From a bacterium (GTDB lineage: Bacteria; Hinthialibacterota; Hinthialibacteria; Hinthialibacterales; Hinthialibacteraceae), in the NCBI GenBank assembly GCA_963662285.2, contig CAXXMV010000008.1, positions 750,083 to 782,082 on the forward strand: a DNA stretch of 32,000 bases. Reading direction: 5' to 3'. Each line of letters starts with the position of its first letter. The first letter of the stretch is position 1. Made by a program: the position numbers and the translations under genes. Shown here piece by piece: positions 6,823 through 23,250 of this stretch. The notes beneath the pieces were generated by a model that worked only from the letters and a program-made list of their open reading frames with translations, searched no databases and was not told the DNA's origin.

Positions 6823-7012
6823 TCGAATATGCTATGCTAACTCAAATGAAGTATTTCTCCATTTCCGTTTGAAACGGAGCACGGGAAGGAAGATTGACAT
6901 GTCACTACTTTGTATGATAAAATCAGGTGTGATATATTTCAGAATAATTCTGGATTAAATGGAAAATCTTGGACATATTGACTAATTTTTTATATCAATT
7001 ATAGAGGAATCC

Positions 7013-10000: not shown

Positions 10001-11638
10001 ACGTACGGTCAGGCAATCTATGATGCATTTGTAGAGAAAAAAAGTCCGGAACCGGGCGATTTACTGCCGCCCCAAACCGCCGTACAGTTACAAAATGATC
10101 TTGCCCTACTTAGGGATGTGATAGAAATACGCTTGTATGCGGATGTTCTTTCCTACACCATGGTTCAATACCGCATTTGTGAGCTCAGTGGAGATTGGGG
10201 CGATGTGGGAAAAGACCGCGCCGATTTTAATTTGATGCAAGTACTGCTTTCTCTTCCGCCCGATGAAGAGATCCAATTTCACCACTATTCACTATATGCA
10301 GAGGCGCGAGAGGAATTGATGGGAACGCTGCATCTTGATCGCTTGAATAAAGAATCGATCGATGCGTTGAAAAAAAAGATGGAATGGTTCGAGTTAAAGA
10401 TATTAAACAAAAAATTCAATCTGAAATCGAAGGAGATTAATCGAATTCTCGCATGGTTGAAATCCAATCATCGATTGACAAACTCATCGGAATGCTTGTT
10501 ATGGGGAAGAGCAGATTGCTTCGGTATGCAAAACAACACAATATCCATCTACCACCATGAGGAGATGCGTTCACCTTTGCTGGCCAATTATTGCGTATCA
10601 TTTTCGAAAGATACGGAAATCATCTTACGTGAAGAAGGGATCAACTATGTGATGTATATCAAATGGGCGAGTGTATTTAATGGTTCGGCGTTTGCGCCGA
10701 CGGCTAAGGAACAAATCTCGGATCGTCTAAAACAATGCGCGCTGGAGGCCTGCCGAATCGGAACGCGACGGGATTTTGAACTGCAGAAAGATTTTTTCAT
10801 CAGCGCCATGATGGAAAATATTTTTTATTATGAATTAACCGACAAATCACTCAATGAGGTGGTTGGAAGTATATCCGTTGGAATGCAATCTGGATTAAGG
10901 AACTTCCACAATAAAAATTTCCTGGCGCACGTGAATTGTCTTACATGCGAATGGCATCCGCTTGTCGATGGCAAAGTCAGCCCCATCGGCAATATTTTAG
11001 ACACAGCTATCGAGAAGAGCGATTACAACCGCGCCTTGCAACTTCTATATATCTATCTCAGCGACGGCTGGTTTCTAGACACCGACATCTCTTTTATGTA
11101 TCCCTATACTCATATTCTGTACCTTCTTATTCTTCCTTATCTGAAAGAGCCTTTGTATGTCGACTTTGAAATGATGCAAAAGGATTTGCCGACACTGTTT
11201 GATTTTATGATAAGTGAATATAAGCGAATGCTCGAACATTTGCATAATTTCCTTCTTAAACGAAGTTATATTGATGAGGGAAAAGAATGCCATTTTGAGA
11301 ATATCAAAGATAAGATTCTCTGCTTCCAAACACTTTATGAAACGTTGGGTACACATTTCGACACGGAATGGGTGAAATCAATTAATTTTTGGAGAAATTT
11401 TTTCAGCAGAGTTCTTCGAGAAGATCCCTTGTTTCATCAGGCATTGACGATTCAGATCCAAGAATATCAAATGGATTTCTATGCCAAATTGTTGAGTCGT
11501 TTTCATGGCCAAAAGCAATACGATCCCAGCCCGGCTGGTGTTGAGAATTATATCATCGAACAAATGACGGATCGAGGGTACTCCATTCGAGATAAGCAGA
11601 TGATCTATCTACCTTTATCCGAACTTGGACTCGATTGA
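7013..11638 (+). CDS. Zn-ribbon - TIR - NACHT-type STAND NTPase - TPR protein with a ~540-aa unassigned C-terminal region
   Basis: 1541-aa ORF with a GAGG SD 5 nt upstream. It starts with a CPKC...CDNC zinc ribbon. The TIR domain reads RIFISYGHDE...LFIIIMTPHS...AYCLNEIAYA, with a putative catalytic Glu120 (nt 7370-7372). Walker A is GKAGIGKS (7730-7753), Walker B is FVILIDALDEA, followed by LRLIVTSRPE. Kinesin-light-chain-type TPRs cover about residues 660-955. I recognise no motif beyond about residue 1000. Confidence 0.9.
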   Translation: MLHCPKCHSSDLTFRKKKNVYICDNCDHEFHTKQSFTAKRIFISYGHDEHAALAEKLKNDLEKRGQLVWFDRNRIPLGPDWELSIEQGLAWLRENRENSLFIIIMTPHSVRRPDAYCLNEIAYAVSKKFDILPIMLVYCEPPLSILRYQYLDMQDCLPIDIHATRYEKHFERLCQAIEQNHRDFEGNQAYFMKYLDPFSLSFNAQVLSKLPNFVGRGWVIEAIDRWLSDPEGSKVFWISGKAGIGKSSLSVWLVENRPEIAAFHMCEYRNNNKSDPKICLLFLVYQLTQELPDYQEKLLQRDISKDVLESDASTLFDSLVVEPLSMIKAPEHNFVILIDALDEASQGRVNDLAEFIANDFKKTPSWLRLIVTSRPETNIQTYFQSIDPFDLDKAKDQNENDIKTYLQTALKPFYPDQPISSGVLQTIVEKSEMVFTYVQQIIQELHAGRLSLDRLDEFPRGLGEYFFTWFKRQFPEADKRKHDSQGTVEIYKKQCLPLLELLAVAQEPLALNTIKSILNWGDYGDDIINFFGSLLIKDETVHPFHSSLMDWLEDSQRSYPYTIRAIAGHRRMMEYGWGVYEDNVQTLPVYFLRRLPLHLMALEEWDRIRQFLCEPHILSHWSRDKQQYELLALWRQIGEALDMVALYMEATVHLGASDFSPRRKQQILRSIASFLALNGHYSSAETLLRQALAILMELEEASLIDVTECKEDLARVYTHQYKQAPALRLFKEVEKAYESELGLDHSDMADLFTHMSDLYYQQCRFTEAAHYCRQALNIHKKHFHFNHSLLADSQHALANINRSQGCGEEAESLYLRCLNIHHENLGDDHIKVADVLHDLAILYFQQNNITQAEYHFKRAFEIRNRFLGASHPQIADTLSALADVMVSKGDLTGAERYYQDALQMLETSFGKESVKRADVMERFAELYIRQDRFEPAMRLLDETLSIRNKYLGPIQFDTMRARRKRTQLQLRYEGLDKRSAFANRNEFLDIESRLAETYGQAIYDAFVEKKSPEPGDLLPPQTAVQLQNDLALLRDVIEIRLYADVLSYTMVQYRICELSGDWGDVGKDRADFNLMQVLLSLPPDEEIQFHHYSLYAEAREELMGTLHLDRLNKESIDALKKKMEWFELKILNKKFNLKSKEINRILAWLKSNHRLTNSSECLLWGRADCFGMQNNTISIYHHEEMRSPLLANYCVSFSKDTEIILREEGINYVMYIKWASVFNGSAFAPTAKEQISDRLKQCALEACRIGTRRDFELQKDFFISAMMENIFYYELTDKSLNEVVGSISVGMQSGLRNFHNKNFLAHVNCLTCEWHPLVDGKVSPIGNILDTAIEKSDYNRALQLLYIYLSDGWFLDTDISFMYPYTHILYLLILPYLKEPLYVDFEMMQKDLPTLFDFMISEYKRMLEHLHNFLLKRSYIDEGKECHFENIKDKILCFQTLYETLGTHFDTEWVKSINFWRNFFSRVLREDPLFHQALTIQIQEYQMDFYAKLLSRFHGQKQYDPSPAGVENYIIEQMTDRGYSIRDKQMIYLPLSELGLD

Positions 11639-11716
11639 AACAGGACGAAACTACTGGAACTGTTGAGCAGTACAGACGACGCGTTCTTGACAAACAGAGC
11701 ATTAATCGAGGTTTTT

Positions 11717-14700
11717 ATGCTAATCGATTTTCTGACTTATCAACGAGAGACCCAAAAGCAACCGGCTCCGTCTAAGCCACTCGATTGGACTTGCGGGGAA
11801 TTGCTTTGTGATGTCAGCTATCTTCAATACACGGGGCCGTCGGAATGGGAGTGCACTGGTTTATTCGGCTCTTCACATACATGCAAAGATATACACCGGA
11901 ATCGCCGTTTTCTCTGCTTGGTTCCACGGGAAGAAATCTATCGCAAAGGTTGGGTGCGTAAGCGATTTGCGTTTGAGTACAAACGGCTTCTCACCGCCTC
12001 TCCCTCCCCCTTTCTGATGATTCCCGTAGGATGGATCGAAAGGGTTGATTATGTCATGTGCATCTTGGAATGGAATGACAGGGTTCCGCTGCAAACCTTG
12101 TTAGAATCATCACAATCGGCGCCATCCTCTTCTCCACTTCCCTTTGCCGATCCCCAAGTGCGAGCGCGCGATGCACTCGAATTGTTTTTCCAAGTCGCCA
12201 CGGGAATGAAACAGTTGCATGACAAAACAGGGTTGATTCATCACAATCTTCATCCCGGAACCCTCTTTTGGAGTCAAGAGCGTCAGGCGTTTCAAATCAG
12301 CGGTTTTCTACTTTCGCATAGTCTGTATTGGACTCGGGAGGATGAACCTGAGTTTGAAACGACATTTCCGGACAACAATGTATCTTCAGAAGATAGTATC
12401 TGCGCATTTCAATTTCCCGAATCCGTCCGTCCCTATCTTCCTCCAGATGTTCTCGATAATCCCCTGCATGCGGAACCCTGCGACGATATATATTCTCTCG
12501 GCATGATCGTATATCAAATTCTGCATAATTTTAACGATGAAGTCGTCAAGCGGTTTCCAACGGATGGTTTTGAAACGCCCGAGTGTGGAAGTGATGGGCT
12601 TCTTACCTTACTGCGCCGATGCCTGGCGACGCAGAGGGATGATCGATGCATTTCGTGGGACGCTCTTCTCGACGATGTACGTAATATGTTGTCTGAAAAT
12701 AAGAGTCGATCCCTGCAAAAACCCCAACTCATTCTTTCATGCGACGACTGTGTGAATCTATCCTGGGCGCACATCGACATGAGTAAATACAGTCGCGCCG
12801 GGGAATGGGCCAACCAAGCCCTCGACATCGAGTCGAATAATTCTTTCGCTCAAATAGCCAAGATGATCACTCTTGGGAAAATCGGTCGCTTGGATGAAGC
12901 CTTTGAAATTGGATCATCCTTACTTCGTAGAGAGCCGGAAAACGCCGAAGCGCATAATTATATGGGTTATTTGTATTACCAAAAAGGAGATTTCAAAACC
13001 AGTCTTGAACATTTTGAATCCAGTTTGCGTTACGATTCCAACCTAGCCTGCAACTATAACAACCTCACTGTACTCTATCTTGTTCACGAACGCCTGAAAG
13101 AAGCGCGGGACTGCTTGATGCGGGGCTTGGAACGCTTTCCCTTCGATCCCGATCTATTGGTTTCATGGGTTAGTGTATCCGAATCGCTAGGAGACCTCCC
13201 GAGCGCATTGGCCCATCTCGAAGAAAAACTCGCGGACGATTGGGATGGCTCCATTCACAATGCGTATGGTATGGTGCTGGAAAAAAAAGGCCGCCTCGAT
13301 GACGGAATAATCCGGCTAGAGGCCTTTCTTTCGACCAGGCCGAGCGCCCATCTCGCTTGGAACCGGTTGGGAATTCTTTCAGAAAACGCCGGACATTTGG
13401 AAAAAAGTCTGGAAAGTTTTCAAAAGGCCATCCGTCTCAAACCACATGACGAAAACTATGTGGGCAATTGCCTACGGATTTTAAACTCATTGGGTTGTTT
13501 GTCTGAGGGAATTCAACTTGGAGAACAATGGTTGTCCTGTTATTATCCCGCAATGTCTGTTAGCAGCCTATTGGGAGTGCTATTGACTAATGCGGATGAG
13601 ATAGAACGCGCGGTAGAGCCTCTTCAGAACGCTCAACGCATTGCCCCTTGCGATGAGACATTGGCGGGCAATCTGGTTCACAGTCTGCGCATTGCCGACC
13701 AGGTAAATCAAGCCATTGAATTCGGCGCCGAATGGTCAGTAACTCATAAAGGTGGATCGTATTTTTGGAATCAATTGGGGAACGCCTATTTTGGCTTGGA
13801 GCGTTTTGCCGAAGCAATTCCCTGTTATCAGAAAGCTCTGGAATTCGAACCGGATGATGCAGAAATCGCATCCAATTTATTAAATGCCTATTTTAAAATA
13901 AACGATTTTTCCGCTTGTATGCAATTCGCCGAAGCATGGCTTGCAGACCATCAGGGCAACGAGAATTTTCATACTTACTTAAGCATCTCCTTCATCAACA
14001 CGAATCAGATGGAAAAAGCCATCTCTACCTTAAAAACCGCTATCAGCAAGCAGCCTGAATTAGCAAATTCACTGAAAGAAGTGATTGCCAAATTAACTCA
14101 GAGTGGGCAGGAACAACGGGCGATTGAATTCGGCGAACTCTGGCTCCTACACAATCCTCCGACGCTGGATGTTTTGAATCAAATCGGAATCGTCCATTAC
14201 GAAAACAAACGCTTTGAAGAGGCGACCGCCTGTTTTCGAAACGCACTCGAACTGGAACCAAGTAATAAAACTGTCGCATTGAATATAATGAATTCCTACG
14301 ATAACTTGAATCAGTATCAGCGGTGCATCGAATTTGGAGAAAATTGGCTCCAACACAATCCTCCGACGCTGGATGTTTTGAATCTTATCGGAATCGTCCA
14401 TTACAAAAACAAACGCTTTGAAGAAGCGACCGCCTGTTTCCAAAACGCGCTCGAACTGGAACCAAGTAATAAAACTGTCGCATTGAATATAATGAATTCC
14501 TACGATAACTTGAATCAGTATCAGCGGTGCATCGAATTTGGAGAAAATTGGCTCCAACACAATCCTCCGACGCTGGATGTTTTGAATCTTATCGGAATCG
14601 TCCATTACAAAAACAAACGCTTTGAAGAAGCGACCGCCTGTTTCCAAAACGCGCTCGAACTGGAACCAAGTAATAAAACTGTCGCATTGAATATAATGAA

Positions 14701-15760
14701 TTCCTACGATAACTTGAATCAGTATCAGCGGTGCATCGAATTTGGAGAAGATTGGCTTAATCGGCACTCGCCAGATGATACAATATTCGGACATCTTGTC
14801 GATGCGTACACTCATTTAGGAAAGTATGATAAAGCAGAACAAGCGTTAGTAAAAGCACCGAAAGAATATCAATATTTGAGATGTATACTAAACGCTTACT
14901 ATCAATCCAAACAATTTGACAAAGCCATCGATTGTGCAGAACAATGGAAAGATCAATACAATCTTGAGCCGGAGTTATGGAATTCCTTGGGACAAATCCA
15001 TTATGATAAAAAACAATATTCGGAAGCCTTAGAATGCTATGAAGAAGCATCGCGATTGTCCCCTGAAAATCTAGATTACCTTAATAACTCTGCTTTGGCC
15101 TTGTCCTCATTAAAAAAACACGATGAAGCGATTGCCCGAATGGGCTATGTACTTGAGCAACAGCCTAGTACTTTACTTTATGCACAAAATTACTTTACAT
15201 GCCTTAAAGACGCCAACCACAAAGAAAAAGCTGTTGAATTTGCGAAAGGGTGGATGGAAGCAAATACTGTGGATGAAATTTTATTGAATTCTGTAGGACT
15301 AACGTTAGATGATTTAAAGAAAGATAAAGATGCAATTGAATGCTACCAGAAGGCTCACGAACTGAATCCTCAAAATGCCGGGTATTTAAATAATATGGGA
15401 ATGAGTTTCAAAGCACTCGGCCAATTCGATCAAGCCATTACTTTAACGAAGCAAGCCATAGAACTGGAGCCGAAAAATATTGTTATTATTGTGAATCATC
15501 TTATCTGTTTGAAAAGTGCAGACCGTCTGGATGAAGCGATCCAAATCGGCAATGCTTGGATTCAAGAACATGGCGAAAAACCAATAGTTTTAAATCAATT
15601 GGCGTTGATTCACGAACAAAAATTTGATTTTGAAAATGCGCTGGTCTGTTATGATTCCACACAAGAGAAAGAGAAATACCTTGCCGCATTAATAGATTAC
15701 GGCCGGTATGAAGCCCTGAATCAAGCCTTGGAATGGTATGACTGGATGGAGACGGCGTGA
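11717..15760 (+). CDS. Protein-kinase-fold domain (predicted pseudokinase) fused to a long TPR array
   Basis: The track ORF starts at a TTG at 11663. I prefer the ATG at 11717, preceded by GAGG plus a 5-nt spacer. Kinase-fold landmarks are LELFFQVATGMKQLHDKTGLIHHNLHPGTLFW (HRD-loop equivalent), FQISGFLLSH (DFG equivalent), PYLPPDVL and DIYSLGMIVYQIL (subdomain IX). TPR repeats run from about residue 370 to the end. Confidence 0.85.
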   Translation: MLIDFLTYQRETQKQPAPSKPLDWTCGELLCDVSYLQYTGPSEWECTGLFGSSHTCKDIHRNRRFLCLVPREEIYRKGWVRKRFAFEYKRLLTASPSPFLMIPVGWIERVDYVMCILEWNDRVPLQTLLESSQSAPSSSPLPFADPQVRARDALELFFQVATGMKQLHDKTGLIHHNLHPGTLFWSQERQAFQISGFLLSHSLYWTREDEPEFETTFPDNNVSSEDSICAFQFPESVRPYLPPDVLDNPLHAEPCDDIYSLGMIVYQILHNFNDEVVKRFPTDGFETPECGSDGLLTLLRRCLATQRDDRCISWDALLDDVRNMLSENKSRSLQKPQLILSCDDCVNLSWAHIDMSKYSRAGEWANQALDIESNNSFAQIAKMITLGKIGRLDEAFEIGSSLLRREPENAEAHNYMGYLYYQKGDFKTSLEHFESSLRYDSNLACNYNNLTVLYLVHERLKEARDCLMRGLERFPFDPDLLVSWVSVSESLGDLPSALAHLEEKLADDWDGSIHNAYGMVLEKKGRLDDGIIRLEAFLSTRPSAHLAWNRLGILSENAGHLEKSLESFQKAIRLKPHDENYVGNCLRILNSLGCLSEGIQLGEQWLSCYYPAMSVSSLLGVLLTNADEIERAVEPLQNAQRIAPCDETLAGNLVHSLRIADQVNQAIEFGAEWSVTHKGGSYFWNQLGNAYFGLERFAEAIPCYQKALEFEPDDAEIASNLLNAYFKINDFSACMQFAEAWLADHQGNENFHTYLSISFINTNQMEKAISTLKTAISKQPELANSLKEVIAKLTQSGQEQRAIEFGELWLLHNPPTLDVLNQIGIVHYENKRFEEATACFRNALELEPSNKTVALNIMNSYDNLNQYQRCIEFGENWLQHNPPTLDVLNLIGIVHYKNKRFEEATACFQNALELEPSNKTVALNIMNSYDNLNQYQRCIEFGENWLQHNPPTLDVLNLIGIVHYKNKRFEEATACFQNALELEPSNKTVALNIMNSYDNLNQYQRCIEFGEDWLNRHSPDDTIFGHLVDAYTHLGKYDKAEQALVKAPKEYQYLRCILNAYYQSKQFDKAIDCAEQWKDQYNLEPELWNSLGQIHYDKKQYSEALECYEEASRLSPENLDYLNNSALALSSLKKHDEAIARMGYVLEQQPSTLLYAQNYFTCLKDANHKEKAVEFAKGWMEANTVDEILLNSVGLTLDDLKKDKDAIECYQKAHELNPQNAGYLNNMGMSFKALGQFDQAITLTKQAIELEPKNIVIIVNHLICLKSADRLDEAIQIGNAWIQEHGEKPIVLNQLALIHEQKFDFENALVCYDSTQEKEKYLAALIDYGRYEALNQALEWYDWMETA
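14120..14760 (+). repeat. In-frame 204-bp (68-aa, two-TPR) tandem repeat, ~3.1 copies
   Basis: Copies start at 14120, 14324, 14528 and 14732 (partial). Read base by base, 14324-14527 and 14528-14731 are identical. Perfect 204-bp periodicity holds over 14246-14749. Copy 1 has scattered substitutions (by eye roughly 90 percent identical). Confidence 0.95.
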
Positions 15761-15826: not shown

Positions 15827-18304
15827 ATGAACCTACACTGGTATGACGAACAAATTCAACTTTACAAAAAACTTACTTCCCTCTATGAAAAAATGGCGGC
15901 GGGATTAAAACGGCGTCTGCAAATCGCCATGTCCGAGATGGGGATGGACGCTATCGTTCAGGCGCGTGCAAAAACCATCTCCAGCTATGCAGAAAAGATC
16001 GTCCGCAAACAGAGCAAATATGCCGATCCTATCCGTCTGATCACCGACCTCTGCGGACTGCGCATCATCGTCGAACGATTGGATGAAGTTCGCCGATTGT
16101 GCGATTTCATTGAAACCGAGTTTGAGATTGATGAAGGAAACAGTGAAGATTGCCTCGAACGTCTGAAGATCAATGAGTTCGGCTACTTATCCAATCATTA
16201 CATCGTGATGTTGACTTCCCCCGAAAAAGCTGAAGCGTTCGGCATTACGACGAGCGATCTCGATATCATAAAAACAGTCAAGGGGCTGGATTTTCCGATC
16301 AAGGCCGAGATCCAAGTACGGACGCTACTGCAACATGCATGGGCGGTTTTCATACATAAGCATCTCTATAAAAGGAAATGGAACCTACCGCGGGCGTGGC
16401 TCCGCGAAACATCCCGTATCTCGGCTATGTTGGAGGATGCGGACGATTCGTTTTCCCGACTGGTCGAGGAAATTGACGTCTATAAGACACAGTACGGCGC
16501 CTACATGACGCCAGATCAGATGAACAGTGAAATCGAGATGCTGCAATTGATTCAACGTTACGATCCCGGTAATGAATCTCTTGCCCGTGAAATTGCTCGA
16601 ATCGCGAAGGAAAGCGGACGCTGGTCATTGGTGGTGGAAACATTATTGCCGTTTCGCGAATCCGCCGATCCCGACTCTCTTCTCGATCTCGGCAACGCCA
16701 TTTTGCACATGAAAGATCCGCTCCAAGTCGATGAAGGCCACCGCCTGATTGAGCGCGCCATTGAATTGTCTGCTAAAAACGCACCAGCCTATATCACCTT
16801 AGCCCAATTGTGCAGAGAAAGCGAACAGACAAAACGTTTGCGCTATTACGAAATGGCTTTTCAGGCCGATCCAAACGAACCCATGGCATTTTGTGGTTTT
16901 CTGCTAAACAAAATCATAGCAGAGCGAAATCGAGATTTTCTAGCATTGCTTCGCCCTCTTATAGAAAATGCCGTCAAACGTTGTAATGATCGAATACGCG
17001 CCGGTGTCGATGCTTCCTCTTCGTATTGTCATATCGGAATATTGCAGATGGCGTTGGGTCGAATGGAATCGAGCGCATCCGCCTTTGCCAAAGCGGCGAC
17101 ATTAAAACCGGTTCCTCGCGTATTTTATGAATATCGAGATTCGGTGCGTTTATTAATAAATCAGGTTAACAATCAATGGCCCGAACTACTCATACTCGAC
17201 CAACTATTCGATCTCTTCAACAAAGCAGAGGCGCTTCAAAGCGGTTCAATCTCTGACATTTCAAACGACTTGCAGACGACGAGCCTGATACGGATTCCCG
17301 TTGTCATTGTGGCAGGCAGCTGCAATGAAGATTCGTCTCACCTCATGGAGGCGCATCGAAAATTGATGACAGAATCGTTTCAAGGATTTCAAGGAACAAT
17401 TGTATCAGGCGGAACCCGATCAGGCGTCAGTGGTCTGGTGGGAGATATGTCGTTGGATATGGGCAACGCCGTGAAACTGGGATATATACCCAAAGACATC
17501 GAATCAAATCAACTGCATCCTGCTTTCCTCATCCGGAGAACGAAGGGATCAACCTTTTCGACGCTGGAACCAATCCAGTATTGGATAGATTTGCTACAAT
17601 CTGGGATTTGTCCATTGCAAGTAAAATTGATCGGCTTCGGTGGTGGGGTGCTTTCAGCGTTTGAATATCGCTTGGCGCTGGCAATGGGCGCCTGGGTGGG
17701 CATATTGCCTGATAGCAGGCGTGAAGCCGCCCGCCTGCTGGACGACGATGATTGGAATGGCTCACCGAACCTTCTTCGCATTCCGTTGGATGCTGGGATT
17801 TTACGTTCCTTCATTCACCCTGCGCCGTCGGCGGCGTTTGCGTCGGATGATCGCGAGCGAATGGCACGGGGCATTCATGGCGAATATCGAAAAAAACATG
17901 TGAAGCGATTGCTGCAATACGAGCCTTCCGCCGTCGAGTGGGAATATCTGAGAGACGATTTGAAAGAGTCTAATCGGCGACAGGCCGATCACTATTGCAT
18001 GACGTTGCAATCGGCCAGTCTCAACATTCGGAAGGCGCTGAGGAGGAGTGAAATACAAATCATTGAATTCACTGATCGTGAAATAGAAGTCATGGCCGAA
18101 AGAGAACATTCGCGTTGGACCGTGGAGCGCTTGATGGATGGATGGCGTCTGGGAGAGCAGAACACCGACCGAAAAGAAAGCCCCTATCTGGTCTCCTGGA
18201 TGGACCTTTCCGACGATATTAAGGACTACGACCGAAACGCAGTCAAGGACATTCCACGGATTTTAGAAGAATACGGTTATGAAGTGTATCGTGAAACCAT
18301 CTGA
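15827..18304 (+). CDS. RelA/SpoT-type (RSH, synthetase-only) nucleotide pyrophosphokinase - TPR-like - SLOG/LOG-like Rossmannoid - RyR module fusion protein
   Basis: 825-aa ORF. All RSH synthetase motifs are present: RAKTISSYAEK (15965-15997), ITDLCGLRIIV, FGYLSNHYIV, EIQVRTLLQHAWA (16307-16345), HKHLYK. There is no HD hydrolase domain. Residues ~230-480 form a helical TPR-like region. The SLOG/LOG-like region (~17290-17720) reads PVVIVAGS...IVSGGTRSGVSGLVGD...IGFGGGVLSAFEYRLALAMGAWVGIL. The C-terminal RyR signature is EREHSRWTVERLMDGWRLG...SPYLVSWMDLSDDIKDYDRNAVKDIPRILEEYGYEV. Confidence 0.85.
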   Translation: MNLHWYDEQIQLYKKLTSLYEKMAAGLKRRLQIAMSEMGMDAIVQARAKTISSYAEKIVRKQSKYADPIRLITDLCGLRIIVERLDEVRRLCDFIETEFEIDEGNSEDCLERLKINEFGYLSNHYIVMLTSPEKAEAFGITTSDLDIIKTVKGLDFPIKAEIQVRTLLQHAWAVFIHKHLYKRKWNLPRAWLRETSRISAMLEDADDSFSRLVEEIDVYKTQYGAYMTPDQMNSEIEMLQLIQRYDPGNESLAREIARIAKESGRWSLVVETLLPFRESADPDSLLDLGNAILHMKDPLQVDEGHRLIERAIELSAKNAPAYITLAQLCRESEQTKRLRYYEMAFQADPNEPMAFCGFLLNKIIAERNRDFLALLRPLIENAVKRCNDRIRAGVDASSSYCHIGILQMALGRMESSASAFAKAATLKPVPRVFYEYRDSVRLLINQVNNQWPELLILDQLFDLFNKAEALQSGSISDISNDLQTTSLIRIPVVIVAGSCNEDSSHLMEAHRKLMTESFQGFQGTIVSGGTRSGVSGLVGDMSLDMGNAVKLGYIPKDIESNQLHPAFLIRRTKGSTFSTLEPIQYWIDLLQSGICPLQVKLIGFGGGVLSAFEYRLALAMGAWVGILPDSRREAARLLDDDDWNGSPNLLRIPLDAGILRSFIHPAPSAAFASDDRERMARGIHGEYRKKHVKRLLQYEPSAVEWEYLRDDLKESNRRQADHYCMTLQSASLNIRKALRRSEIQIIEFTDREIEVMAEREHSRWTVERLMDGWRLGEQNTDRKESPYLVSWMDLSDDIKDYDRNAVKDIPRILEEYGYEVYRETI

Positions 18305-18710
18305 ACCTTGGGCGTCACCCATTCCAACGGCACGAGTCATCATCGTCAATGAAGAGGGCGCTGTATTGCTATTGAAACGTGGTGAGGGCGACTATGGTGC
18401 CGGTCTGTGGTGCTTACCCGGTGGGAAGGTGGATTATGGAGAATGCCTCAAGGAGGCGGCCCGTCGTGAACTGCATGAAGAAACATCGATCCACCCAGAC
18501 CATCTACGTTTTTTATTCTATCAGGATGGATTACCCAAATTTGATCAGGATATGCATTGCATCGAACTTTTTTTTCAATGCGTATACTCCGGTCCCGTCT
18601 CCGTCAATTGCGAATCCATCGATTTTGCCTGGGTTAAAGAGAAAGGAATACAAGATTATCCTATGGCTTTCAATCACGACCGAGCATTGAGCCGATATTG
18701 GGAAACATGA
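18279..18710 (+). CDS. Nudix hydrolase (small, single domain, near-canonical Nudix box)
   Basis: 143-aa ORF. The Nudix box GGKVDYGECLKEAARRELHEETSI (18420-18491) fits GX5EX7REUXEEXGU except for the final G, which is S. The start overlaps the upstream RSH gene by 26 nt. Confidence 0.85.
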   Translation: MKCIVKPSEPWASPIPTARVIIVNEEGAVLLLKRGEGDYGAGLWCLPGGKVDYGECLKEAARRELHEETSIHPDHLRFLFYQDGLPKFDQDMHCIELFFQCVYSGPVSVNCESIDFAWVKEKGIQDYPMAFNHDRALSRYWET

Positions 18711-19422: not shown

Positions 19423-20214
19423 CTATGTGTTTTCTTCATCATGCGGTGTTGTTTCCTGTCCAGATTTAGTTTCCATCTTTTGCCGCGTCCGGTATGAGTT
19501 GCCTTTGGTGGTGAGAATATGAGCGTGGTGCACGAGGCGGTCCAGCAAGGCGGTGGTTAATTTCTCGCTGCCGAAAACCTGCACCCATTCACTGAAATCC
19601 AAGTTGGTCGTCACAATGGTCGAGCGGCGTTCGTATCGATCCGCCAAAAGATTAAATAGCAACTCGCCTTCGTGTTTGTTGAAAGGAGTGAATCCCAGTT
19701 CATCCACAATCAAAAGAGAAACGCTCAAATAGCGTTGATGCAAACGTCCCAGCGTCCGGTCATCTTTGGCTTCCACCAAATTCCTGACCAGTTCCGATGC
19801 TCTCACAAAAACCACCCTGCATCGACGCCGCGCCGCTTCCATGCCCAGCGCAATGGCCAAGTGTGATTTGCCCGTTCCGATTGGCCCCGCAATAATCACG
19901 TCATCCGCGCGATCAATAAATTCACCACTGGCCAGTTCGAGCACTTTCGGTTTGGATACCCCGCGCAATTTCTGCCAATCAATTTGATCAAGCGTTTTTT
20001 GATCGGGGAAACGGGCTTCCCGAATACGGCGCAAGGCGCTTTTCTCGCGTCGTTCGCGCACTTCCGACTCAAGCAACTGCTTGAGAAATTCTTCATAAGG
20101 CCAATCCCCATCCTGCGCATGACGCGCTAATTCCGGGTAAAGCCGCACCATGGCGCTGAGTTTAAGTTCTTTCCCATATTCTTCAATCACGGCTTTCAAG
20201 GCGCTATTATTCAT
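19423..20214 (-). CDS. istB: IS21 helper ATPase IstB
   Basis: Walker A is IIAGPIGTGKSHLAIALG and Walker B is LLIVDELGF; the AAA+ IstB-like sequence runs throughout. I prefer the ATG at 20214 (MNNSALKAV...) over the track start at 20241. Confidence 0.9.
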   Translation of the reverse strand: MNNSALKAVIEEYGKELKLSAMVRLYPELARHAQDGDWPYEEFLKQLLESEVRERREKSALRRIREARFPDQKTLDQIDWQKLRGVSKPKVLELASGEFIDRADDVIIAGPIGTGKSHLAIALGMEAARRRCRVVFVRASELVRNLVEAKDDRTLGRLHQRYLSVSLLIVDELGFTPFNKHEGELLFNLLADRYERRSTIVTTNLDFSEWVQVFGSEKLTTALLDRLVHHAHILTTKGNSYRTRQKMETKSGQETTPHDEENT

Positions 20215-21115
20215 GATCGCCTCCTCGCAACAAAAAATCATAATCGGCGGCGGTCGCTTTTTCGATCACATATTCTGCCAGTTCATCCGGCACGGGAATA
20301 GTTAGAGGCGCACTTTGATCAATGATATCCATTCGCCCCAACAGACCGGTTCGATCTGCGTCCAGTATGTCCTTAACAGCCTGACTGACCTCTTCCAAAG
20401 ATGAGTCCAGGATCGCTCTAAGCACTTTGGCCATTATGCGGGCGGCGTTAATTCCACCGTGTGATTTTTCCAGCAAGTTCCAGAAACGCTGAAATGGTTC
20501 GCCTAGTTCCGACATCAACTCCGGCGAAAGTTGACGGACTGCTTGCGGCTTTTTGGCGAATTCACGCAGGTAATGAACATAGCGAATCTGCCGCCCCGCT
20601 TGTTTTTTCTTTTCATAAATAACGGTGATCCCCTGGCAAACAATCCGTATTTCTTCCACGCCGACATAGGCCATCGCTTCCAGGCAAGCCCATTCCGAGG
20701 GCAGCGAATACTCGGTTCCCTCAATGATGGCGGTCGATTTACGGTTGATTGAAATGGGGAGCAAACGGCTTGGATCAAACGGATAAGGCGGCAGGGAATG
20801 TAAATAGCGCTGCTCTTCTTTGATCTTTTCCGCAACCGGTTTCCCGGCGCGATCCTTTTTGGATTGACGAAGTTTCTCAATGTCATGCAAGAGGGCTTGC
20901 GATAATTGGGCCAGCGAATCGCCGCGCGGAACCGGCGTGAGATGCTGCAAACGAATACCTTTACCCCGGCTTTCCACTCCGCCTTTGTCGTGTCCAACGC
21001 CAACCCGCGCAAAGCAGGGTTCGAATAAATAATGGCTCACCAAGGCGTGGAAGCGTCCGCTTAATTCACGGGCGGGATACATGATGCGTTTTACCGCCGC
21101 CGCCAGATCAACCAA
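20207..21115 (-). pseudogene. istA: IS21 transposase IstA, C-terminal ~300 aa only
   Basis: The track ORF begins at a TTG inside the end of the catalytic core (GHDKGGVESRGKGIR). The expected N-terminal HTH and first DDE residues are missing, and upstream sequence is an unrelated phage-like ORF on the other strand. Confidence 0.75.
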
Positions 21116-21138
21116 TCACAAGACAAAGGAGCATCGAC

Positions 21139-21537
21139 ATGACGGATAACAATTTACCAACATTTTACATGACAGAAGACGAACTCATTCCTGAGGGCGT
21201 TTATCAAACTGAATGCACCAAAGTGGAAAGCATCAAAAAGGGCAGATACATCAAGTTTACTTTCTGAATTTTGGATTATAGCCTTGAGAAAAACTTTGCG
21301 AATGGACTCTGCGAAACACGAAGCAACCGATCTTCCAGTTTCGTACGCTGGGTTAGGACGCTTTCGGGTATTGAATTCTCTAAAGACCAATCCTTCAACT
21401 TGAATGAGTTGCAGCATGACATTATTGGGAACCATTGCTTTGTTCGGATCAAGCATAAAGAAAAAGACGACCGTGTCTTTGATAACGTCGTAGCGGTTTA
21501 TCCGCACGATGATTCGCGATTCACAAAATCGTCATAG
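21139..21537 (+). pseudogene. Small phage-like hypothetical gene interrupted by one in-frame TGA
   Basis: The ATG at 21139 has a strong AAGGAG SD 8 nt upstream. After 42 codons (MTDNNLPTFYMTEDELIPEGVYQTECTKVESIKKGRYIKFTF) there is a TGA at 21265-21267. The same frame then continues into track ORF 21271-21537, which has no SD of its own. Confidence 0.4.
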
Positions 21538-21542
21538 GAGGA

Positions 21543-21770
21543 ATGAGACAAATGACTGTACCCGCTACCTTGAAAAAAGTCATAACGCCGGAAGGGAAAG
21601 TTTATTACGAGGGTTCTTTCCCTTCTTGTATATCCAAGAGCAAAGAGGATCTTAAAGTGATCGGTTACGATGAAGAAAATGTTCCATCTGAATTGCGTTC
21701 TATGGCGTCAAAAGTTCCAGCGAAAGATGGTAATTTTTATCTTTTCATTGAAGAACTGACCAAGAAGTGA
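21543..21770 (+). CDS. Hypothetical small protein (75 aa; start may be the ATG at 21552)
   Basis: An AGGAGG lies immediately upstream, and its spacing fits the second ATG (21552) better. I recognise no motif. Confidence 0.45.
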   Translation: MRQMTVPATLKKVITPEGKVYYEGSFPSCISKSKEDLKVIGYDEENVPSELRSMASKVPAKDGNFYLFIEELTKK

Positions 21771-21855
21771 TTCCGTACTGGATGGCCTTCGGTGAGGTAA
21801 TCGCTTCGCCGGAGCCGATGCGAAACAGAATTCTGATCGATCATGGAATAGACAG

Positions 21856-22044
21856 ATGAAAATAACAATAGATCTCTTCACACGTGAAGATGCAGCGAAA
21901 TACCTTCGCATATCAATTCGGTATCTCGACAAATTACTTTCCGATGGAGAAATACAGAAAGTCCAATACCGTCCCGGAGGGCGAGTATTCATTGACAAAG
22001 CGGATTTGGATGAATTTATCGAGAACAGCAAGCGATATGGCTAA
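21856..22044 (+). CDS. xis: Excisionase / AlpA-MerR-type HTH DNA-binding protein
   Basis: 62 aa: FTREDAAKYLRISIRYLDKLLSDGEIQKVQYRPGGRVFIDKADLDEFI is the typical Xis/HTH_17 pattern. It converges on the integrase gene and overlaps it by 4 nt. Confidence 0.7.
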   Translation: MKITIDLFTREDAAKYLRISIRYLDKLLSDGEIQKVQYRPGGRVFIDKADLDEFIENSKRYG

Positions 22045-23090
22045 TCGATTCTATCGATATCGCTATCCATCTCCTGAAGGTGCGCATAAATTTGCGTTGT
22101 AACTGAATCCTTATGACCCAACCATTTCTGTACTTTATAAAGGCTAACTCCAGCAATAGCCAACTGAGAAGCAAACGTATACCGCAACACGTGAGGGGTG
22201 GCATTATCCACACCGGCTGCGTTGCAGACTTTATCGAATCCTTTACGAAAATCGTATCGATACCGGTTTTGTTTCCGCTCCCTATCATCGGAGAATATGT
22301 ATCCGCTTTCTTCCCTGCAAGGTTCAAACTCTTCCTTGATTTTTGAGTGCATCGGAACCGTCCGATGTCGCCCGCTTTTGGGATTGAAATCCTCGCTCTC
22401 TTGGATAGTGATCGTCCGCCGTTCAAAGTCGAACCATTCCCACCAAATGAACGATATTTCCCGTTTCCGTAATCCTGCATAGATGCCCAATAGGAATACC
22501 CAATACCATTCTCTTCTCAGAGCCTTCGCCACTGCCAAGACTTTTTCGATCTCTTCACTGCTTAAAAATCTCGGCAATTTTTGGGGAACTTTGAATTTCT
22601 CGACTCCAGAACAGGGATTCCGGTCTAATTCTCTACATTTTACTGCTCTCCCCAAGATGGCGCTGATATGTCTGAGATGAATATTGACTGAAGTAGGGGA
22701 CGATCCAGCCTTCAACCTTTTCTGCTTAAAATCCTCAATGACGGCGGGAGTGATCTGTCTCAGTTTCTTCTTATTACCCAAAATCTCTAGAAGATACCGA
22801 ACCGCTTCTTTTTCAATGTTAATTGTAGATTGCCTTTTATGTTGAGCCGCGTATTCCCAATAACGATTAAGAAATGAATCGATATCGCTTTGACCTTGGG
22901 TTTCATGTCCATCAGAGGAAATAGCGAGTTGACGCTCCAGTTCCTTCACTCGTTCGAGCGCTTCCGACTTGATCCCCGTATGGAGATTCTTATGGAATTG
23001 CTTTCCACCTATTGAATAGTAACACCAATAGGACTTGTCATTCTTGCGTTTTTTGCGGATACGGACTTTAACCATGATTCCTCTCTCCAT
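22041..23090 (-). CDS. int: Tyrosine site-specific recombinase (phage-type integrase)
   Basis: 349 aa. The C-terminal catalytic signature is HVLRYTFASQLAIAGVSLYKVQKWLGHKDSVTTQIYAHL (His-x-x-Arg plus the Tyr nucleophile), with GLRKREI (Arg I) upstream. It sits next to the 3' end of a tRNA gene. Confidence 0.9.
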   Translation of the reverse strand: MERGIMVKVRIRKKRKNDKSYWCYYSIGGKQFHKNLHTGIKSEALERVKELERQLAISSDGHETQGQSDIDSFLNRYWEYAAQHKRQSTINIEKEAVRYLLEILGNKKKLRQITPAVIEDFKQKRLKAGSSPTSVNIHLRHISAILGRAVKCRELDRNPCSGVEKFKVPQKLPRFLSSEEIEKVLAVAKALRREWYWVFLLGIYAGLRKREISFIWWEWFDFERRTITIQESEDFNPKSGRHRTVPMHSKIKEEFEPCREESGYIFSDDRERKQNRYRYDFRKGFDKVCNAAGVDNATPHVLRYTFASQLAIAGVSLYKVQKWLGHKDSVTTQIYAHLQEMDSDIDRID

Positions 23091-23176
23091 TCATTATTAT
23101 ATGGAAATTCTATGGAAAGAGGCAAAGGGGGAGTTTCAGGAAAATTATAAGTCTTTATATTTCAATAAATTAAACA

Positions 23177-23250
23177 CGCGCCGGAAGGGACTCGAACCCC
23201 CAACCGCCTGATCCGAAGTCAGGTGCTCTATCCAATTGAGCCACCGGCGC
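23177..23250 (-). tRNA. tRNA-Arg (anticodon UCG)
   Basis: The reverse complement GCGCCGGTGGCTCAATTGGATAGAGCACCTGACTTCGGATCAGGCGGTTGGGGGTTCGAGTCCCTTCCGGCGCG folds as a cloverleaf. The acceptor stem is GCGCCGG/CCGGCGC and the D arm is GCTC/GAGC. The anticodon stem is CCTGA/TCAGG with loop CTTCGGA. The T loop is TTCGAGT. No CCA is encoded. Confidence 0.85.

Follow-up and report, generated by a model that had tools for sequence, protein, structure and literature searches.

A widespread alarmone synthetase family with SLOG and RyR domains, encoded beside TIR immune sensors, is a candidate effector of Thoeris-like defence

A bacterial protein of 825 amino acids combines an alarmone synthetase with two domains of kinds that bind ADP-ribose-type immune signals. 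Its gene lies in a 32,000-nucleotide stretch of Hinthialibacteraceae DNA (the window; Table 1), and it belongs to a widespread family that adjoins TIR immune sensors and is therefore probably a new type of output for bacterial TIR immunity. With middling confidence, we read the protein as a ligand-gated small alarmone synthetase (SAS) that would be the effector of a Thoeris-like, STAND/TIR-driven anti-phage conflict system on an integrative island.

Table 1. Features of the window (positions are those of the whole stretch)
Feature	Position	Strand	Basis or remark
DUF4062-NACHT-TPR STAND protein, partial at window edge	2..2986	-	Pfam DUF4062 7e-11, NPHP3_N, AAA_16, TPR
2TM channel-like + TrkA_N/RCK + RyR protein, 571 aa	3328..5043	-	Pfam TrkA_N, RyR
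Degenerate Nudix-like N terminus + cupin-like C terminus, 362 aa	5040..6128	-	coupled to TrkA_N-RyR gene
Sigma-70-like promoter candidate	6894..6923	+	11/12 match, TG extension; consensus match only
TIR-NACHT(NPHP3_N)-TPR STAND protein	7013..11638	+	Pfam TIR_2, NPHP3_N, TPR_10/12
Kinase-like N terminus + long TPR array, 1365 aa	11663..15760	+	weak Pfam Pkinase, TPRs; PADLOC MkoA-like 1e-18
RSH(SAS)-TPR-SLOG-RyR gene	15827..18304	+	ORF, 825 aa
SAS head (residues 1-225)	15827..16501	+	Pfam RelA_SpoT 47-184; catalytic D74/E161
TPR-like helical repeat array (residues 229-484)	16511..17278	+	AF2 helices, weak TPR matches
SLOG domain, LSDAT (TRPM-type) family (residues 490-665)	17294..17821	+	PF18171, fold matches
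RyR module (residues 673-822)	17843..18292	+	PF02026 741-820 + probable degenerate first repeat ~676-735
MutT/NudG-like Nudix hydrolase	18279..18710	+	Pfam NUDIX 76 bits, NUDIX_4
Island boundary: IS21 istB + istA fragment, tyrosine integrase, tRNA-Arg	19423..23250	-	Pfam IstB_IS21, Phage_integrase; ARAGORN
Tyrosine integrase	22041..23090	-	Pfam Phage_integrase
tRNA-Arg(TCG)	23177..23250	-	ARAGORN

From its N terminus, the protein consists of a RelA/SpoT (RSH) synthetase head, about 250 residues of TPR-like helices, a SLOG Rossmannoid and a RyR module; the AF2 model has a pLDDT of 88.6 and a pTM of 0.81. A Pfam scan of the 825 residues found no HD hydrolase domain, and the four domain calls of an earlier note on this DNA (SAS-type head without HD, TPR-like linker, SLOG/LOG-superfamily Rossmannoid, RyR) all hold. 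The same note implied a rare fusion, which the distribution of the family contradicts. Full-length homologs are 30-44% identical. The architecture is represented by over 140 database clusters, and GTDB species genomes contain at least 547 relatives, patchily distributed over bacteria and archaea. The architecture is better called uncharacterised than unusual, since it is common across genomes; the literature searched yielded no RSH-SLOG or RSH-RyR protein that has been characterised, and the note, too, was aware of none.

The head scores 57.9 bits against Pfam RelA_SpoT (cut-off, 27) and contains all four synthetase motifs listed previously: R47-x-K49-xxx-S53-xxx-K57, TD74LCG77LR79II, G119Y120LSNH124 and E161IQVRTLLQHAWA. 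Residues R47, K49, K57, D74, R79, E161 and Q163 do not vary among 54 homologs, and the AF2 head can be superposed on RelQ/RelP at TM values of up to 0.81 (Foldseek). Among labelled SAS subfamilies it scores best with MixRel (181 bits), followed by FabRel (132-153 bits), an assignment that is based on bit scores against labelled members. A profile of the family heads gave 96-105 bits with DsRel; with toxSAS enzymes it gave 42/36 (CapRel), 21/13 (PhRel), 12/9 (FaRel2), 5 (PhRel2) and 1 bit (FaRel). The nearest subfamilies are MixRel, FabRel, DsRel, PsRel and ActRel, and the head is remote from the tRNA-targeting toxSAS families. RelQ and RelP were present among the PDB sequence matches and the top 50 fold matches, where no solved toxSAS was found. 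Judged by its sequence, the head is an intact MixRel/FabRel-like SAS at a wide distance from each of the five validated toxSAS families, and the "toxSAS-type" label once attached to it is not supported. Pyrophosphorylation of tRNA would be its less likely chemistry, because the scores against CapRel, PhRel, FaRel2, PhRel2 and FaRel are low. The head also matches the PADLOC candidate-defence model PDC-S33.

The TPR array gives weak Pfam matches (TPR_8, TPR_17, TPR_19) and matches designed CTPR proteins; many homologs give TPR matches in Pfam. Both glycine loops of a SLOG are found in the domain that follows, SGGTRSGVSG and GFGGGVLSAFE (GGTxxG and GGGxxxxxE). PF18171 (LSDAT_prok) is matched by 33 of 36 aligned family members, with a best E-value of 6e-11, and the window copy itself lies under the cut-off (E = 0.064; 13 bits, cut-off 25.4). 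A domain-only AF2 model (pLDDT 89.5) matched the Moco-carrier protein (TMt 0.76), the MHR1/2 regions of TRPM2/4/5/8 and the LOG protein YvdD, each at a Foldseek probability of 1.00. By these profile and model matches, the middle Rossmannoid belongs to the TRPM-type LSDAT family of SLOG domains, in agreement with the SLOG/LOG domain proposed in the earlier note. The LSDAT domain of TRPM2, one of the best structural matches, has been solved with ADPR bound.

The PF02026 match scores 53.4 bits (cut-off, 27.4), and H761, W764 and D802 are conserved in 54, 50 and 53 of 54 homologs, respectively. According to 2026 preprints, phage RyR proteins with a PF02026 domain bind 2'/3'cADPR at nanomolar affinity, or cleave it, and contact the ligand through a His (ribose), a Trp (stacked on the adenine) and an Asp. 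This triad is kept in the RSH family as H761, W764 and D802; the phosphate-binding His of the phage proteins is replaced by Ser/Asn. The secondary-structure pattern is duplicated in the AF2 model, the first repeat having counterparts in H684, Y/F687, W705 and S715-N716, and the module is probably an R12-like tandem pair. Previously regarded as an unexplained appendage, the RyR is a candidate for a second sensor beside the SLOG, because PF02026 domains are now described as binding or cleaving gcADPR.

The Nudix ORF overlaps the stop codon region of the RSH gene by 26 nt. Its best NCBIfam matches are of MutT/NudG type, with no conservation of the ADPRase proline; being MutT-like, the enzyme would therefore prefer nucleoside polyphosphates. 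The functional coupling suggested earlier for the two genes gains support from their conservation: a MutT-like Nudix gene adjoins the RSH gene in 52 of 82 loci (63%), 46 times on the same strand within 1 kb, and the two are fused in some homologs (P0027, P0045, P0101, P0104). The Nudix matches the PADLOC candidate-defence model PDC-S07.

The census of 82 loci drew on the best 80 of at least 547, most of them on MAG contigs whose flanks are short; it used our own ORF calls, with neighbours grouped as single-linkage clusters. STAND NTPases lie nearby in 47 loci (57%), and TIR genes, with the TIR N-terminal on a STAND NTPase, in 29 (35%). All 39 candidate TIR segments were verified as Pfam TIR_2, and 38 retain the catalytic Glu. 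Within 2 kb of the RSH gene, 25 TIR genes were observed against 5.4 expected (Poisson P ≈ 9e-10); they number 13 per 100 kb in the first 1 kb and 0.4-3 per 100 kb farther away. DUF4062-STAND proteins stand in for TIR-STAND in other, TIR-less loci. A 2TM-TrkA_N-RyR partner occurs in 26 loci (32%), ClpB-like ATPases in 18 and SLATT proteins in 8. Altogether, 69 loci have recurrent but variable conflict-system neighbours (STAND-TIR/DUF4062, SLATT, channel-like RyR protein), and 13 are without any recurrent partner. The family is tightly linked to Nudix and significantly to STAND-TIR/DUF4062, TrkA_N-RyR, SLATT and ClpB-like genes; adjacency statistics can be inflated by the clustering of unrelated systems in defence islands.

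Nearly all recurrent partner types occur in the window, on an island at tRNA-Arg; this island, the 2TM-TrkA_N-RyR protein and the DUF4062-STAND protein had been overlooked in the earlier note. The TIR-STAND gene, with the promoter candidate upstream of it, heads the same-strand cluster that includes the RSH gene, and its product keeps the catalytic Glu (E120) and has a Walker A motif at residue 240. This Glu and the strong TIR enrichment across loci support the idea, put forward in the earlier note, that a nucleotide-sensing SLOG could couple the enzyme to a TIR-made signal. Between the two genes lies the kinase-like/TPR gene, which was not found among the conserved neighbour clusters of other loci. 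On the opposite strand, the channel-like protein has two predicted hydrophobic helices at its N terminus and an RyR module 31% identical to that of the RSH protein (E = 1e-20); some of its homologs have Ion_trans domains. The Nudix-like protein coupled to it matches Pfam NUDIX under the cut-off (E = 0.0014) and MutT in the PDB (E = 0.056), and its Nudix box is devoid of the REUXEE glutamates.

We infer the ligand, product and phenotype of the RSH-SLOG-RyR protein as follows. The TIR-NACHT-TPR protein would recognise an invader through its TPR sensor, oligomerise, and use its TIR to cleave NAD+, yielding a product of the ADP-ribose family, either a gcADPR isomer or ADPR. This molecule would occupy the pocket of the SLOG, that of the RyR or both, and relieve an autoinhibition imposed on the head by the TPR array, for which the SAS-TPR enzyme Tde-SAS is a precedent. 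The head would then use ATP to pyrophosphorylate a purine nucleotide, with (p)ppGpp and/or (p)ppApp as the most likely product, and the alarmone would arrest growth and phage replication. The translationally coupled Nudix would most likely hydrolyse the nucleoside-polyphosphate product as an antidote or reset, as the antitoxin SAH does for FaRel; alternatively, it might remove stray ADPR-type signal. The channel-like TrkA_N-RyR protein shares its RyR module with the RSH protein and would act in parallel, as an effector at the membrane that reads the same signal.

By analogy with Thoeris, in which the ThsA SLOG is the 3'cADPR receptor and SLATT proteins and ion channels are validated effectors, an ADPR-family signal that switches on alarmone synthesis appears the most likely function. 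STAND-fused TIRs (Avs-like) are usually regarded as NAD+-depleting effectors rather than signal makers, and for this reason were left out of the Thoeris survey. Several observations run against the Thoeris-like reading: a TIR is present in only 35% of the sampled loci, the kinase-like/TPR gene parts the TIR and RSH genes in the window, the window SLOG is under the Pfam threshold, and the phosphate His of the RyR is Ser/Asn. With TIR genes this infrequent and 13 of 82 loci partnerless, a TIR dedicated to the protein cannot be a requirement for its function.

We consider it unlikely that the protein is a physiological, metabolite-gated alarmone synthetase whose SLOG, RyR or both sense adenine nucleotides or NAD-derived metabolites of the cell itself (ADP, ADPR, NAD(H) status), the TIR/STAND neighbours being incidental. 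Such an enzyme would tune (p)ppGpp/(p)ppApp in stress, with the Nudix as paired hydrolase where a SpoT-like partner is lacking. The absence of TIR from 65% of loci and the 13 partnerless loci would agree with this, as would a head whose nearest SAS subfamilies (MixRel, FabRel, DsRel, ActRel) are not among the validated toxins. Tde-SAS, a DsRel, is of housekeeping type and is braked by its TPRs; in animals, the R12 domain of RyR has been described as a metabolic sensor of ADP/ATP; and the pairing of a synthetase with a hydrolase, a part that the Nudix would play here, follows the usual logic of alarmone metabolism. A physiological role is, however, at odds with the patchy, HGT-like spread that includes archaea, and with the location of the window copy on an island that lies at tRNA-Arg and includes an integrase and IS21. 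Conflict-system parts make up the recurrent, variable neighbourhoods of 69 of 82 loci, TIR enrichment falls sharply with distance, and head and Nudix both match candidate-defence models.

It is improbable that the head is instead a signal generator, whose pyrophosphorylated nucleotide would be read by the RCK/RyR of the channel-like protein or by SLATT, which would then kill or arrest the cell. Its own SLOG and RyR would provide input or feedback, and the Nudix would degrade the messenger and set a threshold. RelA-type domains are listed in the literature as nucleotide-signal generators in STAND/vWA conflict systems, and the polyphosphate preference expected of the Nudix would suit a messenger; alarmones by themselves already arrest growth, however, and there is no known example of (p)ppGpp/(p)ppApp binding by RyR or RCK. 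Possible readers are encoded in some loci (channel-like in 26, SLATT in 8), but 56 of 82 lack the channel-like partner, and the RyR module common to the RSH and channel-like proteins, which could link them, argues that both proteins read one upstream signal side by side, and not for a relay. Least probable is a toxSAS-type TA pair, in which the head would pyrophosphorylate tRNA 3' ends or drain ATP as pppApp, the C-terminal domains would gate it via a phage protein or nucleotide independently of the TIR, and the Nudix would be a type-IV-like antitoxin: the overlapping bicistronic layout with a small downstream gene in 63% of loci, fusions resembling fused TA proteins, the PDC-S33 match and the precedent of CapRel, whose fused C-terminal domain can reportedly gate a toxSAS, would fit, but the head scores (1-42 bits against 181 for MixRel), the PDB matches to RelQ/RelP and to no solved toxSAS, and a regulatory half of small-molecule-binding folds, not a protein-sensing pseudo-ZFD, speak against it.

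The ligand-gated effector that we favour resembles type I Thoeris, where the enzyme ThsA (SIR2-SLOG) is likewise fused to a SLOG and a TIR gene (ThsB) shares the locus; the ThsA SLOG receives a TIR-made ADPR-derived signal, the role proposed here for the SLOG of the RSH protein. The output differs, being an RSH pyrophosphokinase rather than a SIR2 NADase, and the SLOG is of the LSDAT (TRPM-type) and not the ThsA type, with an RyR module and a TPR array in addition. The TIR sits on a STAND NTPase and occurs in only 35% of loci, whereas ThsB is small, and the conserved Nudix partner is a further difference. CapRel SJ46, FaRel, FaRel2, PhRel and PhRel2 also have a synthetase-only RSH head, which arrests growth in phage defence or TA systems and is controlled by a fused C-terminal region (CapRel) or a product hydrolase (FaRel/SAH). 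The head described here lies outside all these subfamilies, its regulator consists of two small-molecule sensor folds instead of the protein-sensing domain of CapRel, and its partner is a Nudix, not SAH or a Panacea-type antitoxin.

MixRel and FabRel, as classified by Jimmy et al. (2020), are the best sequence matches of the head; H. praevalens MixRel is 35% identical over 216 aa, including the post-catalytic "LExADxxF" helix. Reference members have 210-400 aa and, unlike the present protein, no TPR, SLOG or RyR; our literature search found no functional data for either subfamily. The DsRel enzyme Tde-SAS of Treponema denticola likewise has a SAS head followed by a TPR domain, which acts as a brake, and makes ppGpp > pppGpp and pGpp, plus (p)ppApp. 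Its head is more distant, and it stops after four TPRs, is without sensor domains, Nudix or TIR context, and is regarded as the housekeeping synthetase of the organism.

The LSDAT SLOG, Nudix and RyR families recur in TRPM2 (LSDAT/MHR1-2 with NUDT9-H Nudix) and in ryanodine receptor R12; the TRPM2 LSDAT, whose MHR1/2 is a top structural match, binds ADPR, and RyR repeats bind adenine nucleotides. Those proteins are eukaryotic ion channels, whereas here the domains are found on an alarmone synthetase and, separately, on a 2TM-RCK protein, and the Nudix is MutT-like, not NUDT9-like. The phage anti-Thoeris RyDEP glycosidase and RyR Tad sponge have the same PF02026 fold, their H/W/D corresponding to H761, W764 and D802. 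They are small homodimers that destroy or sequester the signal; the module described here, which may be a receptor or a signal-clearing enzyme, is host-encoded, probably a single-chain tandem with Ser/Asn for the phosphate-contacting His, and is fused to an effector.

The RSH protein, in which a RelA/SpoT-type small alarmone synthetase (SAS) head is followed by TPR, SLOG and RyR regions, is encoded exactly where the earlier note had placed it, and all four RSH motifs quoted in that note were found in it. A Pfam search located RelA_SpoT (PF04607) at residues 47-184, its 57.9 bits being well above the cut-off (27). The Syn motifs of the head are complete and include the ATP-binding R/K residues, the Mg-binding Asp and the catalytic Glu. 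In an alignment of 54 full-length homologs, R47, K49, K57, D74, R79, E161 and Q163 were invariant, and G119-Y120...H124 were kept at 90% or more. Pfam and NCBIfam searches of the protein gave no match to HD hydrolase, TGS or ACT domains, in agreement with the earlier claim that an HD hydrolase is absent. In the AlphaFold2 model built on the 54-sequence alignment (mean pLDDT 88.6, pTM 0.81), the synthetase fold begins at the N terminus and leads into an all-helical repeat region, where Pfam detected weak TPR matches between residues 300 and 430. A Foldseek search matched the head to RelQ (5dec) and RelP (6fgk), with TMt up to 0.81 and E ~1e-6. By sequence and model, we conclude that the head is of the small alarmone synthetase class of RelA/SpoT homologs, with pyrophosphotransfer from ATP onto an acceptor nucleotide as its predicted activity.

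To place the head among SAS subfamilies, we used the labelled sequences in the supplement of the paper on Tde-SAS, the Treponema denticola DsRel (SAS-TPR) enzyme; these are a sample of references, not the published subfamily HMMs or tree. An HMM of the family head scored highest against MixRel (181 bits), FabRel (153 and 132) and DsRel (105 and 96). Intermediate scores were obtained for PsRel (102 and 87), ActRel (81), BdRel (80), RelQ (72 and 58) and RelP (66 and 41), and the lowest for the toxSAS references CapRel (42 and 36), PhRel (21 and 13), FaRel2 (12 and 9), PhRel2 (5) and FaRel (1). Although MixRel is the top-scoring reference in this sample (35% identity), the architecture of the RSH protein is unlike that of every MixRel reference. 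When the head alone is considered, its closest relatives in the database are RelA_SpoT-only proteins of ~350 aa, whose best match is FabRel and, in the PDB, RelQ; given these two matches, the idea that they are CapRel-like fused toxin-antitoxins was rejected. Since the HMM scores favor MixRel and FabRel and the head-only relatives are FabRel/RelQ-like, relatedness gives no support to the label "toxSAS-type" proposed earlier: the head falls in none of CapRel, FaRel, FaRel2, PhRel and PhRel2 (1-42 bits versus 181 for MixRel).

Like DsRel, the RSH protein has a SAS head followed by TPR-like repeats, but the DsRel references score below MixRel and FabRel, and the RSH protein runs on into SLOG and RyR; membership of DsRel was rejected on these grounds. 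The only near-side enzymes studied biochemically make (pp)pGpp and (p)ppApp, so the chemistry of the head is likely, by analogy, to be alarmone synthesis rather than tRNA pyrophosphorylation. [quoted passage not shown] Literature searches combining SLOG with SpoT, toxSAS with RyR, and MixRel/FabRel returned no relevant characterization.

The earlier note had also called the middle domain a SLOG/LOG Rossmannoid. The window copy itself scores below the cut-off of PF18171 (LSDAT_prok, "SLOG in TRPM, prokaryote"; 13 bits versus 25.4, E = 0.064). About half of its homologs carry a precomputed PF18171 match, and when the domain (residues 478-700) was excised from 36 aligned family members of 30-45% identity, 33 gave PF18171 matches at E ≤ 0.01, the strongest at 6e-11. 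A full-length Foldseek search was swamped by SAS-head and TPR proteins and was uninformative on this domain, so a domain-only model was used (pLDDT 89.5). Its PDB matches include Moco-carrier protein 2iz5 (TMt 0.76, E = 4e-6), MHR1/2 of TRPM2 (6d73, 6pkx, 8e6v and 7aov, ADPR-bound structures among them), TRPM3/4/5/7/8 and the LOG protein YvdD (1t35); every match is a member of the SLOG superfamily, with probability 1.00. The GGTxxG and GGGxxxxxE loops are conserved, G528-G529-T530, G533, G536, G606-G607 and E613 being invariant or kept at 90% or more in the family. A profile of the SLOG alignment found only insignificant matches among PDB sequences (ribosomal L30e, and a TRPM2-like one at E ~0.09). 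The call holds because two independent lines, the PF18171 matches of the family and the modeled fold, agree. On this evidence the domain is a SLOG specifically of the TRPM-like LSDAT type, and a putative receptor for an ADPR-type or other nucleotide. SLOG and LSDAT were reportedly defined by Burroughs et al. in NAR in 2015.

The C-terminal RyR assignment stands well above threshold (PF02026 at residues 741-820, 53.4 bits versus a cut-off of 27.4), and RyR repeats in the PDB match the protein at 9e-15. Phage sponges often derive from host receptors. Two 2026 preprints report that phage PF02026 proteins bind gcADPR, the 2'/3'cADPR-type signals. In RyDEP, a phage RyR-domain glycosidase, H75 and D117 form the catalytic dyad, W78 stacks the adenine and H100 contacts the phosphates; RyDEP homologs are mostly nanomolar sponges, not enzymes. 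For RyR Tad, a phage sponge that uses residues equivalent to those of RyDEP, the Kd for 1''-3' gcADPR is 43 nM. In animals, the ligands of the R12 domain include ADP and ATP analogues. In the RSH family, equivalents assigned by motif rather than by structural superposition are H761 (54 of 54 sequences), W764 (50 of 54, F or Y in the others) and D802 (53 of 54), and the position of the phosphate-contacting His is occupied by Ser (38 sequences) or Asn (11). A degenerate copy of the motif (H684, Y/F687, W705 and S715-N716), conserved in the family, lies within the ~70 residues ahead of the Pfam repeat, and the modeled secondary-structure pattern of the repeat is duplicated in the same stretch. 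Since motif copy and pattern both recur upstream, the module is probably a single-chain R12-like tandem; the sequence self-alignment is weak (~2.8 sd above shuffles). The extended module also ends the TrkA_N-RyR protein of the window (31% identity, E = 1e-20). Two domains of the RSH protein, SLOG and RyR, are thus candidate sensors of ADPR-family molecules, and the second is shared with its channel-like partner. A paper on ER-calcium evolution makes no mention of prokaryotic RyR domains.

The fusion, described earlier as unusual, is not rare. More than 140 clusters in the protein database, nearly all full-length, are 30-44% identical to the RSH protein, and a scan in which each GTDB species was represented by one genome gave at least 547 relatives, almost all of them from MAGs. 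These come from Planctomycetota, Chloroflexota, Desulfobacterota, Acidobacteriota, Gemmatimonadota, Actinomycetota and Bacteroidota, and from several archaeal lineages; searches of PLSDB plasmids and INPHARED phages gave no full-length relative. Variants include proteins with Nudix fused at the N terminus and proteins with Nudix but without RyR. Four relatives on long contigs (P0193, P0196, P0197 and P0210; 373-560 aa) consist of SLOG-RyR or TPR-SLOG-RyR without the RSH head. The sensor half therefore also exists by itself, where it might serve as a sponge-like regulator or work together with a separate effector. Automatic annotations call family members "RyR domain-containing protein" or "ppGpp synthetase/RelA/SpoT-type nucleotidyltransferase." As the earlier note had it, no characterized RSH-SLOG or RSH-RyR protein was found in the literature searched, nor was an RSH effector of a TIR system, with a purely computational earlier mention possible.

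The window holds nearly the whole set of partners that recur beside the family. On one side, the DUF4062-NACHT-TPR gene gives the island a second STAND sensor, the two having TIR and DUF4062 N termini. Next to it, the TrkA_N-RyR protein begins with two hydrophobic helices around a pore-helix-like "LYSTIQLFILEYDD", followed by TrkA_N/RCK, and some of its homologs bear Ion_trans domains; a ligand-gated channel effector is a possible role for it. At 3001..5000, over the TrkA_N-RyR gene region, GC content is only 0.33-0.36, compared with ~0.44-0.50 in the remaining cluster, which suggests a separate origin of the TrkA_N-RyR module. In the protein of the overlapping ORF, the N-terminal Nudix-like box reads RPLKED instead of REUXEE, so this degenerate domain is probably non-catalytic; the C terminus is cupin-like (VHVHGLPAVEIYGILSG). 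Divergent from this side runs the cluster of TIR-NACHT-TPR (first in the cluster; TIR_2, 57 bits), kinase-like/TPR, RSH and Nudix genes. The kinase-like/TPR gene is not conserved beside the RSH gene at other loci. The N terminus of its product resembles MkoA/MAD6-type defense kinases (PADLOC), and three near-identical TPR blocks of ~67 aa at ~14150..14800 (NPPTLDVLN.IGIVHY.NKRFEEATACF.NALELEPSNKTVALNIMNSYDNLNQYQRCIEFGE) suggest a recent tandem duplication. IS21 remnants, a tyrosine integrase and a tRNA-Arg gene mark the end of the cluster, which therefore appears to be a defense island integrated at tRNA-Arg.

Features of the apparent defense island (window positions) and domains of the RSH protein (residues)
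Feature	Position	Strand	Basis	Remarks
DUF4062-NACHT-TPR STAND	2..2986	-	Pfam	partial, runs off left window edge
TrkA_N-RyR protein	3328..5043	-	Pfam	571 aa
Nudix-like/cupin-like ORF	5040..6128	-		362 aa; 4-nt overlap with TrkA_N-RyR gene start
TIR-NACHT-TPR (TIR-STAND)	7013..11638	+
Kinase-like/TPR	11663..15760	+
RSH gene	15827..18304	+		825 aa
RSH protein, alpha/beta head	residues 1-220		AlphaFold2 model
RSH protein, all-helical repeat region	residues 229-484		AlphaFold2 model
RSH protein, alternating beta/alpha Rossmann-like domain	residues 492-665		AlphaFold2 model
RSH protein, helical C-terminal module			AlphaFold2 model	RyR repeat at its end
Nudix	18279..18710	+
Island edge, IS21	19423..23250			istB (intact); ORF at expected istA place (no Pfam match)
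Island edge, integration	19423..23250			tyrosine integrase; tRNA-Arg(TCG) immediately adjoining

We carried out a neighborhood census on 82 non-redundant loci, using our own ORF calls and HMMs that were seeded with the window plus two homolog loci and then iterated; the sample represents the best 80 of at least 547 loci. TIR ORFs occurred in 29 loci, and a Pfam search verified TIR_2 in each of the 39 candidate TIR segments. Of these, 38 retain the catalytic Glu, among them the window protein (E120). TIR density within 1 kb of the RSH gene was 13 per 100 kb, compared with 0.4-3.4 per 100 kb farther out. STAND NTPases, as judged by neighbor clustering and Pfam searches of representatives, occurred in 47 loci; the TIR proteins, mostly STAND-fused, are a subset of them, and the TIR-less members have DUF4062 or other N termini. 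The TrkA_N-RyR protein (~600 aa) was found in 26 loci and SLATT proteins in 8. In 18 loci, but not in the window, there is a double AAA+ ATPase of ClpB-like type (~766 aa), often accompanied by a YbjN-like protein of 186 aa; in one locus the two genes lie at L053:4484-6781 and L053:6793-7350. At least one recurrent partner was present in 69 of the 82 loci. Defense islands bring unrelated systems together. On a Desulfovibrionaceae chromosome (L001:1404-9500), genes for an nSTAND1-ankyrin protein, two unknown proteins and a patatin phospholipase precede the Nudix-RSH pair, and TIR-NB-ARC and TrkA_N-RyR genes lie on the other flank, making this a larger composite defense locus.

The main rival to a role in TIR immunity casts the RSH protein as an alarmone synthetase that is gated by a metabolite and serves normal physiology, with defense-gene neighbors that are incidental. 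The presence of TIR in only about one third of loci and the 13 loci without any partner speak for it. The co-localization of unrelated systems in defense islands weakens the case for TIR immunity. STAND-fused TIRs are, moreover, usually regarded as NADase effectors, and a Thoeris survey set them aside as probable ones, which tells against TIR as the source of a signal. Incidental neighbors are, however, at odds with the enrichment of TIR within 2 kb of the RSH gene, where 25 were observed and the rate at 4-10 kb predicts 5.4 (P = 9e-10).

A second rival is a toxSAS/Nudix toxin-antitoxin pair. Nudix genes were present in 52 of the 82 loci, in 46 of them on the strand of the RSH gene and no more than 1 kb from it, and almost none were found elsewhere; the two genes abut or overlap (in the window, the overlap is 26 nt), an arrangement that fits such a pair, with neutralization being putative. 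The head, as scored here, lies outside all five validated toxSAS subfamilies, which speaks against it, and we know of no toxSAS antitoxin class made up of Nudix proteins. The family Nudix box is of the MutT/NudG type (G.W.LPGGK.D.GE....AL.REV.EETGL). The Pro characteristic of ADP-ribose pyrophosphatases, ~15 residues after the box, is present in the window Nudix protein; it was dropped as evidence because it is not conserved across 48 family Nudix proteins. By analogy with the SAH antitoxin of FaRel, the Nudix protein most likely hydrolyzes the RSH product; alternatively, in line with the LSDAT-Nudix pairing of TRPM2, it might clear an ADPR-type signal. No intrinsic terminator was found downstream of the window Nudix gene. 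As a last rival, the RSH protein could itself make a messenger that the RyR channel reads.

A wider reading, tentative and still doubtful, is that the system is a new branch of TIR immunity, in which host RyR (R12-like) and LSDAT-SLOG domains serve as natural gcADPR/ADPR receptors and together switch on an alarmone synthetase, for a stringent-response-like arrest, and a 2TM-RCK-RyR channel, with Nudix as the reset. The mechanism that we propose against the rivals, and prefer to each of them, is as follows. Detection of an invader by the TPR array of the STAND protein would lead to oligomerization, upon which its TIR would turn NAD+ into an ADPR-family molecule. Docking of this molecule in the SLOG and/or RyR pockets would free the TPR-restrained SAS head to make (p)ppGpp and/or (p)ppApp, and growth arrest would follow.

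If this mechanism holds, NAD-derived immune signaling and (p)ppGpp/(p)ppApp signaling would be wired in series, and an alarmone synthetase would join the outputs of TIR/Thoeris systems. It would give prokaryotic RyR domains, so far known only from phage counter-defense proteins that bind or cleave gcADPR, their first cellular role, and a function to a family present in at least 547 species-level bacterial and archaeal genomes, mostly uncultured. It would also offer a tractable bacterial model for LSDAT, Nudix and RyR-repeat gating of TRPM2 and ryanodine receptors. The wider TIR-branch reading, if true, would in addition reveal the bacterial source of the modules by which ligands gate animal channels, LSDAT plus Nudix (TRPM2) and the RyR repeats, as well as the source of the phage RyR sponges. 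The parts are of known kinds; their combination, in what would be a TIR-linked, sensor-gated effector, and a host-encoded RyR as presumptive signal receptor, are new.

Among known systems, we compared the RSH system with Thoeris. As in Thoeris, a TIR protein with the catalytic Glu is encoded along with the putative effector, and by homology the RSH protein bears a SLOG domain, as does ThsA, and a PF02026 RyR of the gcADPR-binder family. It differs in that TIR, despite its local enrichment, is found in only the 29 of 82 loci and is mostly STAND-fused. Among the Thoeris effectors validated by experiment are SLATT and ion-channel proteins (types VII and X), which supports the channel-like RyR protein and the SLATT neighbors as candidate parallel outputs.
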